Part shown: positions 44,346 through 60,483 of the stretch, one piece after another
Position numbering within the stretch: the first letter of the stretch is position 1
Layout of the letters: every line of letters starts with the position of its first letter
Assembly (NCBI GenBank): GCA_043817075.1
Contig: JBDRHG010000022.1
Span: 39,102 to 103,101 of the forward strand
DNA: 64,000 nt
Direction of reading: 5' to 3'
Origin: an archaeon
Lineage (GTDB): Archaea; Nanobdellota; Nanobdellia; Woesearchaeales; JAADFO01
The notes under the pieces: generated by a model
What the model saw: only the letters and a program-made list of their open reading frames with translations
Told to the model about the DNA's origin: nothing
Database searches by the model: none
Program-made: the position numbers and the translations under genes

Positions 44346-44593
44346 GGGATGGCCGGGGGCATCGCGTCATAAAAAGATTACGCAATCGAACTTGAGAAGG
44401 GGAAGATACGGCTGCCAAACATGGGTAAAAAGTGCAGATACGGGCAAATAAATTCCTATTAAACCGAAAATCTTGTGCCTATTTCGAAAAATATTTATCA
44501 ACAGCAATATTTATACTGTAATGCTCCCAGAATTAGGGGGTAATAGATAAGGGGATAAAATTTGACGCTCTTATAAAATATATATTGAAAAAT

Positions 44594-54225: not shown

Positions 54226-54422
54226 TAAGAGTCCTCCCTTGCACAAACAACATAGCCATCTAGGAAGGCGTAGAGGCTTTTGTCTAGACAGAAGATTACC
54301 GGGCGTTCAGACACCTTTTTCGCCAGTCTGAACAAGTCTTCCTTGCTCTGAAGTTCAATTAATGTTAATACTTCAGGCAAGAAAATGTGCTTTGCTTGAA
54401 TAGGTTTAATCAGGCCGTTCAT
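54225..54422 (-). CDS. Small hypothetical protein (65 aa) coupled to the polymerase gene
   Basis: There is a 4-nt overlap with the end of the polymerase ORF. I recognised no domain. Confidence 0.5.
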   Translation of the reverse strand: MNGLIKPIQAKHIFLPEVLTLIELQSKEDLFRLAKKVSERPVIFCLDKSLYAFLDGYVVCAREDS

Positions 54423-56674
54423 TTGCCCTCCAACTTTTTCAGTCGTTCAATGATCTTCTCACTGAGTTTTGGCACAGCGTCCTCTCCCAGCCGTTTCCTG
54501 ATCTCGAACTCTGTTTGGCGGCTTATACCTGCTGCTCGGAGTTCAGGAGAAGAAGCCTTCCGGAACTTCGAAACCAACTTTGAGATATTCACGACTTCTT
54601 GTGGTGCTTCACCTTCAAGGATTTGGAGGTCCACGTTCTTGACCTGTTTCCCGATATACCGAAAGCCATCAACAGTCAGATGTCTCCTTTTCATCCAACC
54701 CTCCTCTGACCCGTTCTCGTACTTGTCTTCAGGATGGTTGAGGAAGCGAATGAATGTGTCTTCCAATGTGGCCCAGTACTGAGAACCTTGCAGCACTTCT
54801 CCGGTCTCGTAATTGATAAACGGCTTATGCACAACACTTCGAGGGTCCTTACAGAAGGGGGCGATAGGCTTGACCATTCGACCGTCTTTGAGACTGGAAG
54901 GTTGGCCTACAATGAAGAAATTAAATGGTTTCACCTGCTTGCAGAAAGGTCTGCCTTCGTTCATTTTTGAGAACCGATCCAATACATTCATGGACGTGAT
55001 GCTGAGCTTGCTCAACGCAGGTAGACCTCTGTACCGCTCAAGCACGGAAGGAGGATCAGCGAGTCCAAGTGATACGGAGACGATGTCGTGCCAGAACTTC
55101 TTCATCCATGCATCGCCTTTTCCGCCAAAAGGATTCATCAAATAGCCAAGGCCGTGAGCCTTCCACCATCCATCAACAATTTCTATGCCTTTCTTGGTTT
55201 GTTCAAAGAGGCAGTACCGCTTTGCTGAGATCCCGAAAAACCATTTTTTCCGGATCTCGACCTCTAGAAAGGGAGCATTCTTCCCGAGAGGGCTTAGTGG
55301 CTGAAAGAACTTGACAAGTTCATCTTCATAGCCTACAGGGCAAAAAATCGAATCGGTATCGTTGTAGATTGGTCTTGTTCCTATCTGCTTTAACTTTGCC
55401 TCACCCAAACACAAGAGAAGCCGACCTCCGGCAGCGATGGATGAACCGATCCAAGGGGCAAAGTAGGGTCCTGGCTCCTCATACTCCATCTCTGCTTCAA
55501 ACTGCTCATTACTATAAACACTGACGTTCTCCAGTGACTCCTGAGGGTTGAGTTCTATTGAGATGCCGTAAAGGGAGCTGGCTACGGTTTTAAGCATCTT
55601 AGCATACATTCGTTCCCTTGATTCTTCCGGATATTTCTTGAGTTCAGCACGCCGATTCAGAAGCTTAAGTGCGATATCATCCTTAGAAGGGTTGAGTTCC
55701 ATTCCCAATACTTTTACAGTTTTCAGGTCTTGCTGGCCTACGGCCTCAAACCGGAAAGCTTTTGTGATCTTCGGCGTTCTTCCGGTGAGCAACTTTGAAG
55801 CTATAAGGTCTGGCAATGAATAATTCGCTTTGGACTTCATCCTTACGTGGGAAAGGGAGAGCTTTGGGAGCCTGCCAGAACCGCAGAGGGCATTAACTGG
55901 TAAGAGGTATTCTCCAGGAGGCATCTCGCAAGTCACCGCTAGACGCGGCCAGAGCGACTTATCCTGCAAGCTTTCAATCGTTACATGATCCAGTAAGCGT
56001 TGAACTTCTTCAGTACAGTCCTTTACTAAAATTTTCTCTGCAAAGAGAAGGCTTTGGAGTTTTAAAAGAAAGAAGAGTGAGATGTACATACCATTGAAGT
56101 CAAGGACAGAAATCTCAATGGGCTGCTTTCGAATGAAAAGCTGGCATAACCCTCCATAATAGGTTGAAAAGACCTTTCCTGCCGGACCCAGAAGATTATT
56201 CTCAATAGGCCAAGATGACCTTAAACCCATCTTGCGAAGGATATATTTTACGATGGTTGCCGTGGAGTATATCTTTCCAAGTTCCAGATCGCCCAGCCCT
56301 AACTTTGCATATTCATTTTTCAGGGAATGATACAATTCTGCCGTTGCAGACACATCAGCTAGGTTGTACTCAATGAGTTTAGGTGATATTTTAAAGTCGT
56401 TATTATCAGTCTGTTTGAAATGAGTCGTATTCAGTATTTTGCTCGCTTGATCCAAAGTTATATGACGCTTTTGAAGCAGAACCGCAGTCGCAGCCTTCAA
56501 ATCGATGATCTTGCCCGTAGAAAACTCCTTGCGCCCTCTTGGCCGTGGGTAAGTGAAGGAGATGAACGACGAGATTCGATCTCTTGGGATGATACGAATT
56601 CGTGGGAAGTCATTTGATGAAAGGAACTGCAAAGAGAACCCTTTAGACTTATTTCCTTGCTTTCTTCGTATCAT
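54419..56674 (-). CDS. polB: Family-B DNA polymerase, main part (Exo III plus all polymerase motifs)
   Basis: Exo III is EYNLADVSATAELY. Motif A is VLDFNGMYISL, motif B is KMLKTVASSLYGIS and motif C is IYNDTDSIF. The KxY motif is SAKRYC. Confidence 0.9.
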   Translation of the reverse strand: MIRRKQGNKSKGFSLQFLSSNDFPRIRIIPRDRISSFISFTYPRPRGRKEFSTGKIIDLKAATAVLLQKRHITLDQASKILNTTHFKQTDNNDFKISPKLIEYNLADVSATAELYHSLKNEYAKLGLGDLELGKIYSTATIVKYILRKMGLRSSWPIENNLLGPAGKVFSTYYGGLCQLFIRKQPIEISVLDFNGMYISLFFLLKLQSLLFAEKILVKDCTEEVQRLLDHVTIESLQDKSLWPRLAVTCEMPPGEYLLPVNALCGSGRLPKLSLSHVRMKSKANYSLPDLIASKLLTGRTPKITKAFRFEAVGQQDLKTVKVLGMELNPSKDDIALKLLNRRAELKKYPEESRERMYAKMLKTVASSLYGISIELNPQESLENVSVYSNEQFEAEMEYEEPGPYFAPWIGSSIAAGGRLLLCLGEAKLKQIGTRPIYNDTDSIFCPVGYEDELVKFFQPLSPLGKNAPFLEVEIRKKWFFGISAKRYCLFEQTKKGIEIVDGWWKAHGLGYLMNPFGGKGDAWMKKFWHDIVSVSLGLADPPSVLERYRGLPALSKLSITSMNVLDRFSKMNEGRPFCKQVKPFNFFIVGQPSSLKDGRMVKPIAPFCKDPRSVVHKPFINYETGEVLQGSQYWATLEDTFIRFLNHPEDKYENGSEEGWMKRRHLTVDGFRYIGKQVKNVDLQILEGEAPQEVVNISKLVSKFRKASSPELRAAGISRQTEFEIRKRLGEDAVPKLSEKIIERLKKLEGK

Positions 56675-57114
56675 TTTTTATCACCTGTCGTGGTTGTTCT
56701 ATGGCGGGTGTTGCCGAAATGCATCGTCATACGACTAAGATCGAATGGAGCATTGAAGAATACAATATCACTTTTCAAATCTAGAACCTCGACGTAGAAA
56801 ACTTTTTCTAGAAACTCTGACAATGTGTACAGATACAGATTGTGCTTTGAGCAATACCTTTGGATAACTTTAATCTCCTGAGGAGAATTATTACAGGGGT
56901 GGTAAAATAATCCTCCCCCACAAATTCTTTCCGTTTGATGGATCTCAAATGCTCCAATAGTGGTATTCTGAAAAGCATCCGGTGTCGTTTCCGTATCAAT
57001 GATTAGGATTCGGTCATCATCTGGCCCTTCATCTGCCTGACTAACCTTCCCTTTGTTATTTTTTGGATCTTCTTTTCGACGTGGAAACATCCTTATGAAT
57101 GCATGTTTCTTCAA
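56671..57114 (-). CDS. polB: Family-B DNA polymerase, N-terminal exonuclease fragment (Exo I and Exo II) in a separate ORF
   Basis: Exo I is ILIIDTETT (DxE) and Exo II is VFFNAPFDLSRM (Nx2-3FD). The ORF ends in ...GDKK at an A6 run whose last A starts the downstream ATG (ATGA overlap). Confidence 0.8.
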   Translation of the reverse strand: MKKHAFIRMFPRRKEDPKNNKGKVSQADEGPDDDRILIIDTETTPDAFQNTTIGAFEIHQTERICGGGLFYHPCNNSPQEIKVIQRYCSKHNLYLYTLSEFLEKVFYVEVLDLKSDIVFFNAPFDLSRMTMHFGNTRHRTTTTGDKK

Positions 57115-57424
57115 GTTTTTTCACCTCCTCTTCTTCGAGTAATGAAACACCCTCAAAGATGTATGAACCCCACTCGAGCCAAACAGTAACCATACTCTTT
57201 AGGTGTCTAAGTTGCAGTAACCGCGAATTCTTTTTCTGATCCTTATTCAGCTGATTTACTAACTTGGATAGGTTTCTGTGAAATGCCCGATCCAATGGCA
57301 TCGTGAACTTCGGGAAATCTCCGCCCAATGGGTGATGCATCTCGATTTCATCGCTTTCTCGAAAAGAGACCTTTCTGAGCGAACGAATGAATTTCTCTTT
57401 CCATATGTTTATCACAGGATTCAT
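57056..57424 (-). CDS. Hypothetical protein (122 aa) upstream of polB
   Basis: ORF in the operon that overlaps the polB-exo ORF by 59 nt. I recognised no domain. Confidence 0.5.
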   Translation of the reverse strand: MNPVINIWKEKFIRSLRKVSFRESDEIEMHHPLGGDFPKFTMPLDRAFHRNLSKLVNQLNKDQKKNSRLLQLRHLKSMVTVWLEWGSYIFEGVSLLEEEEVKKLEETCIHKDVSTSKRRSKK

Positions 57425-58068
57425 GGGTTCACGTTGTAGATATCATAAAACTCAATTTCATCAATCTGCTCATCGAGCTCTCGCACCTTTTTTGGATTAC
57501 GTTCAAGGGTGTAAGCTCTACCCTCTGCGTCATGAATCTTTGCAGGCAGGAAGTTTATCAGAGCATCAGGATTGCCACGAGTCAGCAAGTCCCATCTTAC
57601 GGTGGAGTGATATCTTCCTATGGTCGAGGCCTCTTTTAAGGAGTCAACTACGATTACCTTTTTTTCACCTCGCGTGAATATCTCCATTCCGCGCTGGATT
57701 TTATCCGATGCCTTTGCCCTCCACGTCCCTTTCTTTTTTTCCAACGCACTCGCAACATGCTTCTTCACCAAACGGCGATCCACACCTTCCCTCTTGGATG
57801 CCTCAGTCAATGATAATCCCTTCCTTCGCATTTGGTTAATCACTCTCAGAGAATCAACCCGGTCAGTTCTTTCCTTTGCTGTGAGTTCCGACCAAGGCTT
57901 TCGCGATTGGTCCAAATCAGAGAACTTCACAATTTGCAACTCGCATAGAGACAAGGACTTATCCAACTCATGCTTCCTCTCAATAGTTATGGCATATCTT
58001 GTAAGTCGCGATCGATCGGTTCTCCATTCCGAGATGGTTTTAAACTTCTTCGAGAACCGTCGTTTCAT
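57421..58068 (-). CDS. Hypothetical basic protein (215 aa) with an internal HTH-like segment
   Basis: MRRKGLSLTEASKREGVDRRLVKKHV resembles a helix-turn-helix. The gene overlaps both neighbours by 4 nt. Confidence 0.6.
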   Translation of the reverse strand: MKRRFSKKFKTISEWRTDRSRLTRYAITIERKHELDKSLSLCELQIVKFSDLDQSRKPWSELTAKERTDRVDSLRVINQMRRKGLSLTEASKREGVDRRLVKKHVASALEKKKGTWRAKASDKIQRGMEIFTRGEKKVIVVDSLKEASTIGRYHSTVRWDLLTRGNPDALINFLPAKIHDAEGRAYTLERNPKKVRELDEQIDEIEFYDIYNVNP

Positions 58069-58418
58069 TTGTGCTCCTCCGAAGAAGTAAGACTATCTTC
58101 AGTCGGTAATTTGATGATTTGTGTAGGCTTTTTTGGTTCGTCCCAGACCTTTACAGTCACTATTTCCGTATCTTCTTGATCTTTCCGGGAATTTTTGATC
58201 GGTAATTCGATAGTCTGTATGGGCTTTTTTGGTTCGTCATAGACCTTTACAGTCACTATTTGCTCTTTTTCTTGTTCCTTCTGATCTTTTTTTTGGATTG
58301 TTTTCAGAACTTTGTGACGTATGAAGCTAGAAATCGAACGGTGTTCTTTCGTTGCTAACCTTCGTAATTCCGAGTAATCTGGTGGGTCTAATCGGATCGA
58401 AATATGTCGTTTTGCCAT
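58065..58418 (-). CDS. Ribbon-helix-helix protein with two C-terminal 32-aa tandem repeats; first gene of the polB operon
   Basis: The preferred start is ATG 58418 (MAKRHISIRLDPPDYSELRRLATKEHRSISSFIRHKVL, an RHH). It is followed by IVTVKVYDEPKKPIQTIELP... and IVTVKVWDEPKKPTQIIKLP... Confidence 0.7.
   Translation of the reverse strand: MAKRHISIRLDPPDYSELRRLATKEHRSISSFIRHKVLKTIQKKDQKEQEKEQIVTVKVYDEPKKPIQTIELPIKNSRKDQEDTEIVTVKVWDEPKKPTQIIKLPTEDSLTSSEEHK
58068..58259 (-). repeat. 96-bp tandem direct repeat (2 copies) encoding the 32-aa repeats of the RHH protein
   Basis: GGCTTTTTTGGTTCGTC(CC/AT)AGACCTTTACAGTCACTATT occurs at 58126 and 58222, giving a period of 96 nt. Confidence 0.8.
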
Positions 58419-58491
58419 GATTTGATTGGTAATATGGCAAAGTTTATATATAGCTATAATTCTCATCTAATCAGAAATAGAGGAATTCATC

Positions 58492-59340
58492 ATGGCATAC
58501 TATACTGGAAATCCCTACAAATTAAAGGATTGGGAAACGGAACCTTTATCGATGTTTCAGGATATTGATGGAAGATATCTATTTTGTCATTTTTTTCATC
58601 AACCAACGAGCCTTCAGATGTTAATGAAGAATTCAGAGAAGTACAAACCGAACAATACTAAAGCGTACAGACTTTATAATCTCTTTAAAAAATTTGGTTA
58701 TATTAAAAAAACGAAAACTACCGTTTCAAGTTATGAGAGAAAACAAGACAATAAACTAATCCCCACAAGAGACTTTGGGTATCTGGGAACAACTCAACCG
58801 TTTTATGATTACTTAAGATCTCTACATCTGCGGGATGATTTTAATATAATAGAAGAGTTAGTTGAAGAACTGTTTTCACATCCTGAGATGCGATTGTTTC
58901 TATTAGATTCATATGCATACCATATTGAAGATAAACGCTTCGAACTGTTTACTATTTTTTCCAGTCTTGATTTGCTACAAAGCTTTCGAGATATTATGAG
59001 TGTATTTTACTATTTTGATCAACATCCAAAAGTCCTACGGCAGTTGCTTTCACTGCACAACACGAAATGTAAATCTTATAACTGTTTGAAAGAACGTATC
59101 AATTCTGTGCGTGAAAAAAGAGAGCTAAGAAAAAAAATGCATGATATGAACGTGTTCCCTTACTTCATATTAGCATCCTATTTTCAGCATCTATTGAATC
59201 TTGTTCGAGAAGACATCAACTTTGAAAAGTGTTTATCAGATCTTTATGCTACCACAACATCAAATTATCACCACATGCAATATTTGAACGAATTAGAACG
59301 AAGCAAGTCTCTTAAGAATATGCGTGTTCAAAGAAAATGA
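58492..59340 (+). CDS. Hypothetical protein (282 aa) in a very AT-rich patch, convergent with cas1
   Basis: Long ORF whose 3' end overlaps the 3' end of cas1 by 48 nt. I recognised no domain. Confidence 0.6.
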   Translation: MAYYTGNPYKLKDWETEPLSMFQDIDGRYLFCHFFHQPTSLQMLMKNSEKYKPNNTKAYRLYNLFKKFGYIKKTKTTVSSYERKQDNKLIPTRDFGYLGTTQPFYDYLRSLHLRDDFNIIEELVEELFSHPEMRLFLLDSYAYHIEDKRFELFTIFSSLDLLQSFRDIMSVFYYFDQHPKVLRQLLSLHNTKCKSYNCLKERINSVREKRELRKKMHDMNVFPYFILASYFQHLLNLVREDINFEKCLSDLYATTTSNYHHMQYLNELERSKSLKNMRVQRK

Positions 59341-60483
59341 TTCGTTTCCTTCGGCGTTTTTTTTCATGTAGTGCAGTGATCCCCGGGAGTATCCTCTTTT
59401 TTCCCATTCGCTGTAGCTGATGGCTAGGATCTTTTTTCTTATGGCTTCGGTGTCTTGACGATCAAGTACTGGGCGGGGTTTGGTGAGGTCTAGCGTTTTT
59501 CGTTTGCCGTTGAGGTGGTGTGCGAGTTCTGTGGTTTTGTTGAGGATGAGGGCTTTCCAGCTGCATGTTTTTCCTTTGTAGGTGGTCTTTTTTCCTAGCT
59601 GGCGGTTGAACTCCCGGATGGCTTTTTTTGCTCCGCTTGGTCGAAGCTTGAGGGTGTAGGTTTCGGTTCTGATGAAGTCTTTGGGCTGCATTGTTCCTTG
59701 TTCTGTGAGTGCGAGGACTGCGAGGTCTGTGAGGAAGCGGAATGGTTCCTGGAGGTCGTATGCGAGGCTGTTCTTTCCCGGGGCGGTTTTGTGGAGGAAT
59801 CCTACGTGCGGGTCTAGCCCTGCGGTGTTGATGGCTCGCAGGACTTCTGCTTCAAGAATCGAGTAAAGGTAGTTGAGAAGGGTGTTTGTGGGGTCTCCGG
59901 ACCCCCAGGGCTTTCGGCGGTAGCCTCTGGACATAAATCCGGCCTTTTCTGGAAGGATTTTTGCGATCTGGCTCCAGTAGTGCTGTGCTGCTACTGCTTC
60001 GACTCTGAGGATTTCTGGGGCGTTTCTTGCGGCCTGGAGGCCTTTTGCTTCTGTTGGTAGGTTTTCTTCGACTTGTGGGTATCGTTCTTTGAGCCAGGAG
60101 AGCATGTCTGTGGTGCGGCAGAACTTTGCCTCAATAAACTTCTTAGCAAGAAAAAGCCTCTGTGAGTCGTCTTCTGAGGCCTTGTACTGGCAGAATTTTG
60201 TCTGTACAGCGACGCTTCCCGGCGGGAGCATGGTGGTGAGGAGCTTTCCGTTCCAGTCGAGCAGGGTGACTTGTGTTCCGTGCTTGATAAGCCACCGTGC
60301 AGCGTCTAGCGTGAAGCTTCCTGAACGCCCGTAGATTACCAGATTATCTATGCCTATCCTTTTAGGCCTGAACGTCCACTCGTGGGGTGTTCCTTCTCCG
60401 GTTTGTCCGTCACGGATTTTTAGCCGTGCAGCGTCAACCCATACCTTGATGCCGTGCCCGTTGAGGACAAGTATGCGATCCAT
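59293..60483 (-). CDS. cas1: Cas1 family integrase without CRISPR context (casposase-like), with C-terminal HTH tail
   Basis: Cas1 core motifs are present: LRVEAVAAQHYW, DPTNTLLNYLYSILEAEV, GLDPHVGFLHKTAPGKNSLAYDLQEPFRFLTD. The N-terminal beta domain is MDRILVLNGHGIKVWVD. The C-terminal ISYSEWEKRGYSRGSLHYMKKNA is HTH-like. Confidence 0.92.
   Translation of the reverse strand: MDRILVLNGHGIKVWVDAARLKIRDGQTGEGTPHEWTFRPKRIGIDNLVIYGRSGSFTLDAARWLIKHGTQVTLLDWNGKLLTTMLPPGSVAVQTKFCQYKASEDDSQRLFLAKKFIEAKFCRTTDMLSWLKERYPQVEENLPTEAKGLQAARNAPEILRVEAVAAQHYWSQIAKILPEKAGFMSRGYRRKPWGSGDPTNTLLNYLYSILEAEVLRAINTAGLDPHVGFLHKTAPGKNSLAYDLQEPFRFLTDLAVLALTEQGTMQPKDFIRTETYTLKLRPSGAKKAIREFNRQLGKKTTYKGKTCSWKALILNKTTELAHHLNGKRKTLDLTKPRPVLDRQDTEAIRKKILAISYSEWEKRGYSRGSLHYMKKNAEGNESFSLNTHILKRLASF

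Follow-up and report, generated by a model that had tools for sequence, protein, structure and literature searches.

The window analyzed here is a stretch of 64,000 nucleotides (nt) from the draft genome of an uncultured archaeon (contig JBDRHG010000022.1 of assembly GCA_043817075.1, positions 39,102 to 103,101 of the forward strand; lineage Nanobdellota, Woesearchaeales, JAADFO01), and the coordinates given below count from its first letter. On the minus strand it carries what, judging from the genes present, is a casposon-like element, in which genes for Cas1 and a family B DNA polymerase adjoin. The polymerase gene, polB, is divided between two open reading frames (ORFs), termed polB-N and polB-C, which meet at a run of six adenines.

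The two reading frames and their junction

The following features of the divided gene are referred to throughout. Lengths are in amino acids (aa), nt or base pairs (bp), and SD denotes a Shine-Dalgarno sequence.

56671..57114, minus strand: polB-N, 147 aa, TTG start, with Exo I and Exo II (ORF list, alignments, profile positions 2-135)
54419..56674, minus strand: polB-C, 751 aa, ATG start, with Exo III, motifs A, B and C, KxY and the C-terminal region (ORF list, PF03175, alignments, profile)
56674..56679, minus strand: A6 run, coding for Lys-Lys, the last A being the A of the polB-C ATG (sequence)
56671..56674, minus strand: ATGA stop/start overlap of 4 nt (TGA at 56673-56671, ATG at 56674-56672)
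56680..56686, minus strand: AGGTGAT, a 7-nt SD match located 5 nt upstream of the polB-C ATG (complement to the 16S rRNA 3' end)
57121..57129, minus strand: AGGAGGTGA, a 9-nt SD match located 6 nt upstream of the polB-N TTG start (operon SD comparison)
56645..56703, minus strand: insertion of 59 nt, compared with ~6-12 nt in relatives, coding for HRTTTTGDKK / MIRRKQGNKS (alignments with relatives)
56665..56674, minus strand: 5' arm, AUGAUACGAA, of a perfect stem of 10 bp in which the polB-C start codon is included (fold analysis)
56589..56598, minus strand: 3' arm of this stem, UUCGUAUCAU, within the conserved PRIRI codons (fold analysis)

A first-pass annotation of the same DNA had assigned Exo I and Exo II to the upstream ORF and Exo III, along with all polymerase motifs, to the downstream ORF, and both the ORF list and our alignments with relatives bear this out. 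PolB-N contains DTETT (Exo I) and NAPFDLSR (Exo II), whereas polB-C contains YNLADVSATAELY (Exo III), DFNGMY (motif A), KTVASSLYG (motif B), NDTDS (motif C) and KRY. A family profile of 884 positions, built on 87 full-length relatives, aligned with polB-N at positions 2-135 and with polB-C at positions 131-882, with no profile position lost. The 898 codons are open in both ORFs save at the junction, every catalytic residue checked is present, and no conserved residue was lost to the split. Judged by homology, polB-N and polB-C together are one complete polymerase with nothing missing. The match of polB-C to the protein-primed family DNA_pol_B_2 (PF03175) was marginal, reaching 26.2 bits against a cut-off of 25.8 and covering residues 79-198 only. 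A reading in which TGA serves as a sense codon was rejected, as the continued upstream frame (...YEESKEISLKG...) is unlike the polymerase family.

Read directly on the minus strand, the sequence across the junction is ...ACA GGT GAT AAA AAA TGA TAC..., in agreement with the earlier description of GGT GAT AAA AAA TGA followed by an ATG that starts with the last A of the run. Directly 5' of this ATG, the polB-C frame reads TGA TAA AAA, and the two frames are therefore joinable only within the A run. The product of ~898 aa that had been proposed for such a joining corresponds to the sum of the two ORFs (147 + 751 = 898). The 3' end of the host 16S rRNA reads ...GGATCACCTCCT, and AGGTGAT is a perfect 7-nt complement to its anti-Shine-Dalgarno sequence. 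Each ORF has a start signal of its own, namely, a 9-nt SD with TTG for polB-N and a 7-nt SD with ATG for polB-C; these two SDs are the strongest in the element's operon, and the polB-N TTG aligns with Met1 of the relatives.

The 4-nt ATGA overlap was also found at neighboring junctions of the polB operon, and the overlapping junctions counted in the host genome numbered 147 (79 ATGA, 32 GTGA, 13 TTGA and 23 one-base overlaps). An SD match of at least 7 nt was present at 19 of them, compared with 0.32% of 20,000 random coding positions, and a match of at least 6 nt at 35, compared with 2.1% of these positions. The arrangement AGGTGAT-N5-ATGA, a layout identical to that of the polB junction, recurred at host junctions on contigs C5 and C8.

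The sequence AAAAAATGA, as present at the polB junction, was also detected at two other host sites (contig C4, minus strand, offset 226870; contig C24, minus strand, offset 55463), which separate long open frames of 904/1,340 and 122/462 codons, respectively. The site on C4 is one of the 79 host ATGA junctions.

The 10-bp stem over the polB-C start codon was spotted after the fact. A stem of at least 10 bp over the ATG formed in 7 of 3,000 dinucleotide shuffles, and we treat it as a mere hint.

The insertion at the break and the related loci

The break lies in a stretch that is specific to this lineage. In the split polymerase, the Arg after the Exo II helix and the conserved (K/N)GF strand have 20 residues between them, compared with 2-4 in its relatives. 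The segment from Exo II to PRI measures 42 aa, whereas it measures 25-27 aa in 81 of 91 relatives and 38 aa in the longest of them; for this comparison 135 ORFs were taken, 44 of which were dropped for a mismatch to the motif pattern. The insertion thus delimited has a size of roughly 16 residues, was seen in none of the 91 relatives and encloses the SD, the A run and the stop/start overlap. No second copy of it was found in the genome, and its likeness to the polB-N initiation region was insignificant (79/1,000 shuffles). In relatives the loop is often Lys-rich, and nine of the 91 have an A run of at least 6 nt in their Exo II-to-PRI segment.

A protein word search showed that the best non-self match is 36% identical to the split polymerase. 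Most of the non-self matches listed (87/119) are 840-960 aa long, and the shorter ones start or end at scattered places, none of them starting at the polB junction. The search of 201 genomes of the same order returned a match in four, including the genome itself, and none was close; the best of them (G102) is an uninterrupted 876-aa open frame with 36% identity. The element was absent from the genomes of the same genus and the same family that were searched, there was no relative among viral contigs, and no DNA match was obtained among plasmids and phages.

A comparison of the junction in related elements, which had been suggested as a check, was carried out at 159 related loci. One near-full-length ORF was present at 127 of these, and most of the other 32 were cut by contig ends. 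None of the 159 loci shares the split, which, as far as these sequences indicate, is not a family trait, the relatives being single chains. Eight loci, or roughly 5%, carry a genuine break in the form of a frameshift, an in-frame stop or large gaps (L013, L037, L038, L081, L097, L125, L127 and L135). At L038 (3512-9667), from a metagenome-assembled genome of Pseudomonadales, the polymerase is divided into three parts (profile positions 3-95, 89-604 and 608-817), with gaps of ~1.6 and ~1.2 kb between them, which suggests inserted elements. A word search for a cluster of stand-alone N-terminal fragments gave only the query itself among five candidates. A HMMER search produced 83 short matches among the top 150, with ends scattered over profile positions 95-338; these matches come without genomic context, where a cut at a contig edge looks like a split, and were not used either way.

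Origin of the junction and rival explanations

To obtain an empirical null, one-base insertions and deletions were simulated at every homopolymer of at least 5 nt, giving 3,849 events in all. Among the 1,626 indels simulated in host genes, a start within 10 nt of the new stop combined with an SD of at least 7 nt arose once, and never with the exact 4-nt overlap; among the 2,223 indels in intact polB relatives, the combination of start and SD arose in no case. The 8 broken relatives provided 10 real break junctions; in none of these does a start overlap the stop, and within 12 nt their SDs reach 4 nt at best. The telling control is L127 (3040-3060, metagenomic), which is frameshifted in the homologous loop (...GLGRKK / WRGGFIFTLS) in the direction opposite to that of polB-N/polB-C; its upstream frame continues for ~20 codons past the break, with no start or SD there. 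An ordinary slip in this loop therefore looks nothing like the polB junction.

The first-pass annotation had named four explanations without choosing among them. With moderate confidence we favor the last of these, a two-chain polymerase produced from one mRNA by termination-reinitiation, because of the 7-nt SD, the lineage-specific insertion and a junction laid out as at host junctions, three features that this annotation had not noted. Ribosomes would start at the TTG (57114) behind the 9-nt SD and make a 147-aa chain with strands beta1-beta4, Exo I and Exo II, terminate at the UGA (56673-56671) and re-initiate on the overlapping AUG (56674-56672), where the SD AGGUGAU 5 nt upstream would position them. 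This restart would yield a 751-aa chain comprising Exo III, palm, fingers and thumb. The 10-bp stem may otherwise mask the AUG and in this way tie translation of the second chain to that of the first. The two chains would then assemble into one exonuclease-polymerase fold, with the new chain ends situated in the flexible, lineage-specific loop just after the Exo II helix. A likely origin is the loss of one A from an A7 run beside an in-frame Met codon, and the deletion may have been tolerated, or retained, since the site was already functional in restart.

Structure predictions were made for polB-N alone and for both chains. The AlphaFold2 model of polB-N, generated with an alignment, had a mean pLDDT of 81.5, with values above 90 for residues 35-125, and showed strands at 35-43, 51-60, 63-71, 94-97 and 116-120 as well as helices at 78-90, 98-112 and 124-139. 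At its tail, residues 139-144 had a pLDDT below 50, and the last block averaged 47. Since a helix is followed by this low-confidence tail, the model places the cut in the loop just after the Exo II helix; polB-N is predicted to be a folded subdomain with a low-confidence C-terminal tail. The two-chain model of polB-N with polB-C scored 0.89, compared with 0.00 for the best control; among solved complexes 116 of 157 attained this mark, and among mismatched pairs 2 of 215. Its runs agreed in at least 81% of contacts, with a partner pLDDT of at least 77. The model has ~350 contacts, and the confident interface excluded polB-N residues 138-147 and polB-C residues 1-11. Such a pass points to likeness and a possible fit, not to binding, and we give it little weight because the halves of a fold that has been solved many times as a single chain are expected to pass.

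Several observations weigh against a two-chain polymerase. The split is a single case, common to none of the 159 related loci and with a closest relative of only 36% identity, and there is therefore no sign of conservation of, or purifying selection on, the split form. We found no tested precedent for an exonuclease active site split between Exo II and Exo III. L127 is frameshifted in the homologous loop at an A8 run and has none of the coupling features, and the loop is therefore a mutational or sequencing hot spot. The length of the A6 run is known from the draft assembly alone, and the stability of the local RNA fold, taken over its whole length, is not out of the ordinary (z = -1.29). Among the 1,626 indels simulated in host genes, 306 produced an overlapping [A/G/T]TGA start; a TGA that arises prematurely mostly brings such a start with it, and ATGA alone carries little weight. 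Finally, the split polymerase differs at 6 of the 36 columns that are invariant in the 87 relatives and at 30 of the 120 columns conserved at 90% or more, including positions in motif A (S to G, P to I) and motif B (Asn to Ser). By its count of such differences it comes second among 88 sequences, bracketed by two intact, isolated relatives, P0110 (35/121) and P0115 (25/122). This reads as a long branch more than as decay, and relaxed constraint could also explain it.

These differing columns, in motifs A and B among others, would also fit a recent one-base deletion that inactivated the gene of a decaying element, leaving a dead or crippled polymerase beside which the SD and ATG are coincidental. 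We consider this possible but unlikely. It is in line with the 8 broken copies among 159 related loci, one of which, L127, has its break in an A8 run of the homologous Lys-rich loop, with the failure to find terminal inverted repeats around the Cas1-polB core and with the absence of the element from the same-genus and same-family genomes searched. However, the coupled architecture arose in at most 1 of the 3,849 simulated indels and in none of the 10 real breaks, the 898 codons contain one lesion only, Cas1 is intact, and P0110 and P0115, which are intact and have long branches, show a matching count of differing columns. Furthermore, even after a recent deletion, a site of this kind can yield an active enzyme in two chains (PMC3061061), so that recent and functional are compatible. 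An error of sequencing or assembly, with a true A7 run and an ordinary single ORF of ~898 codons, is suggested by a break exactly at a homopolymer in a draft genome of 26 contigs, and L127 is likewise shifted at an A run in the same loop. We nevertheless judge it improbable, since it would leave the well-placed 7-nt SD and ATG unexplained and the assembly is clean: 84% of the genome is taken up by ORFs of at least 150 aa, intact ORFs reach lengths of up to 6,203 aa, and long intact ORFs contain 556 A/T runs of at least 6 nt. A +/-1 merge scan gave 33 hits at 2,370 homopolymer sites, compared with 19 at 2,370 random sites, and these were mostly ordinary gene boundaries.

Another alternative would be programmed -1 frameshifting or transcriptional slippage, by which a fused protein of ~898 aa would be the main product and the stop codon would set its dose. 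Archaeal ribosomes shift at A-AAA-AAT in the Sulfolobus gene fucA1 with a frequency of 5-10% (PMC1616953). At the polB junction, a P-site tRNA-Lys on the second AAA, with UGA in the A site, could re-pair perfectly one base back, after which the next codon would be AUG, giving ...GDKK-MIRRK..., and an SD-like sequence and a stem are nearby. However, the site (GAT AAA AAA TGA) provides no zero-frame X XXY YYZ heptamer, as a T precedes the run, so that full re-pairing is confined to a single slip in the P site. There are 3 nt between the end of the SD and the shift codon, and the stem has its start inside the run, whereas stimulators of -1 shifts (dnaX, RF2) are located upstream by ~10 nt or more and downstream by 5-9 nt. 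With the z value given above, the fold is not significantly stable, and an A6 run is short for transcriptional slippage. Nor is the site conserved: of 91 relatives only 9 have A runs of at least 6 nt there, the shift in L127 goes the opposite way, and the outcome that the first-pass annotation had named as a refutation, uninterrupted homologues lacking a conserved slippery run, was essentially obtained. Frameshifting as a conserved device, the third of the explanations listed earlier, is thus not upheld, and we regard frameshifting or slippage as the source of the main product as very unlikely, although a small fused fraction from slipping alongside restart is possible. We attach hardly any probability to variation between A6 and A7 within the population that would switch between a single-chain and a split or inactive polymerase; the homopolymer does lie in a loop that is a hot spot of the family, but the genome has only one copy, and runs of six are short for frequent slipped-strand switching.

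The element, known systems and significance

The genes upstream of polB are as follows.

59293..60483, minus strand: Cas1 (casposase-like), 396 aa (PF01867, E 2.5e-57)
58065-58466, minus strand: gene for an RHH protein, in the same tightly overlapped operon, upstream of polB
57421-58068, minus strand: orf215, in the same operon, upstream of polB-N
57056-57424, minus strand: orf122, in the same operon, upstream of polB-N

The Cas1 gene is located 2.6 kb upstream on the same strand and is intact. A tightly packed operon with 4-nt overlaps extends from the RHH protein gene (58466) down to orf65 (54225), and orf215 and orf122 had no Pfam match. A Cas1 homologue was found within 6 kb of the polB relative at 113 of the 159 related loci, and the split polymerase therefore belongs to the casposon polymerase family. 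The RHH gene has an 83-nt tandem direct repeat, 82% identical (58103-58185 and 58199-58281), that doubles the peptide IVTVKV(Y/W)DEPKKP.Q.I.LP. The ORFs orf122 and polB-N overlap by 59 nt (57056-57114) in different frames, and the SD and TTG of polB-N lie inside the end of orf122. The window contains no tRNA genes and no Rfam families.

The Cas1-polB core lies in a low-GC island (28-50% GC, compared with 52.7% for the genome) that starts at ~44.4 kb and runs to the contig end, and the right end of the element may therefore be missing. A search for terminal inverted repeats around the core gave none that was convincing, and no target duplication was found. There is only a weak inverted pair (22 nt, 86%; 44542-44563 and 66771-66792, the second arm being beyond the window; blastn E 5.8), the left arm of which is exactly at the left GC transition of the island and the right arm ~30 nt from the contig end. 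This pair could be the ends of a larger element of ~22 kb or could be due to chance. The host is a small-genome archaeon, with an archaeal 16S rRNA, a 1.52-Mb draft genome in 26 contigs that is 89.9% complete, and one polB copy. Two 16S rRNA loci with differing 3' ends were present, on contigs C3 (1263-2648) and C14 (100393-101359; partial, at a contig end), which could correspond to two operons or to a little foreign DNA in the bin.

With Cas1-solo beside a PolB that matches the Pfam protein-primed type, the element resembles the Family 1 casposons (Krupovic 2014, PMC4046053), and the polB relatives that adjoin Cas1 (113/159 loci) include Nitrosopumilus loci. It differs from them in that no terminal inverted repeats or target duplication were found, in its small-genome archaeal host and in its split polymerase; the words split, frameshift, disrupted, pseudogene and truncated do not occur in the main text of PMC4046053.

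The closest parallel to the proposed mechanism is a laboratory split of Pfu PolB (Pfu 4C11/SQ), in which deletion of a single dA places a new TGA directly 3' of an ATG. Termination-reinitiation then supplies the second chain, and the two-chain enzyme behaves like the wild type (PMC3061061). The casposon polB likewise has a stop directly beside an ATG, and a coupled second chain is proposed for it. In Pfu PolB the cut falls at the fingertip of the fingers domain, came from a selection experiment and works in Escherichia coli, whereas the casposon split is natural, falls between Exo II and Exo III in an added loop with a strong SD, and has an activity that is predicted only. Natural split PolBs have been described in Methanobacteriales (PolB3; Kelman 1999), in Nanoarchaeum equitans (split intein) and in T4-like phages (gp43) (PMC4104785, PMC3061061). 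As in the present case, one PolB is coded by two genes, and in those systems the products assemble; there the cut falls within the polymerase part or at an intein site and shows conservation in the respective lineage, unlike the casposon split, which cuts the exonuclease domain, has no intein trace and is a singleton. The Sulfolobus solfataricus gene fucA1 (PMC1616953) is similar in that an archaeal gene is contained in two ORFs offset by -1 at an A-rich site. However, its ORFs overlap by 40 nt at a true A-AAA-AAT heptamer and the downstream ORF alone gives no product, whereas polB-N and polB-C overlap by 4 nt and polB-C is equipped with an SD and an AUG of its own. In the literature searched, including the main texts of PMC4046053 and PMC7544198, we found no description of a PolB, from a casposon or of the protein-primed type, that is split between Exo II and Exo III. 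Split PolBs themselves are already known; what appears to be new is the position of the split in the exonuclease domain, based on one sequence.

Two points of the analysis concern annotation in general. A one-base "frameshift" with a well-placed ribosome-binding site is not automatically a pseudogene, and the simulation of indels is a cheap means of separating a coupled split from a plain break.

Casposons are regarded as the origin of the CRISPR adaptation machinery, and to our knowledge their replication has hardly been studied. It is conceivable, if improbable, that the split is an adaptive device, with a proofreading site built from two chains in a ratio set by SD-assisted restart and by the stem, which would mask the second start codon. 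Were this so, the large chain without the small one would be an exonuclease-deficient, error-prone polymerase, and a self-replicating transposon would possess a built-in fidelity switch. Quite apart from any such advantage, a natural split inside the exonuclease domain would, if true, mean that the fold tolerates two-piece manufacture at a new position, and the polB junction would then be a natural and simple system for examining how restart couples translation in an archaeon with a small genome.

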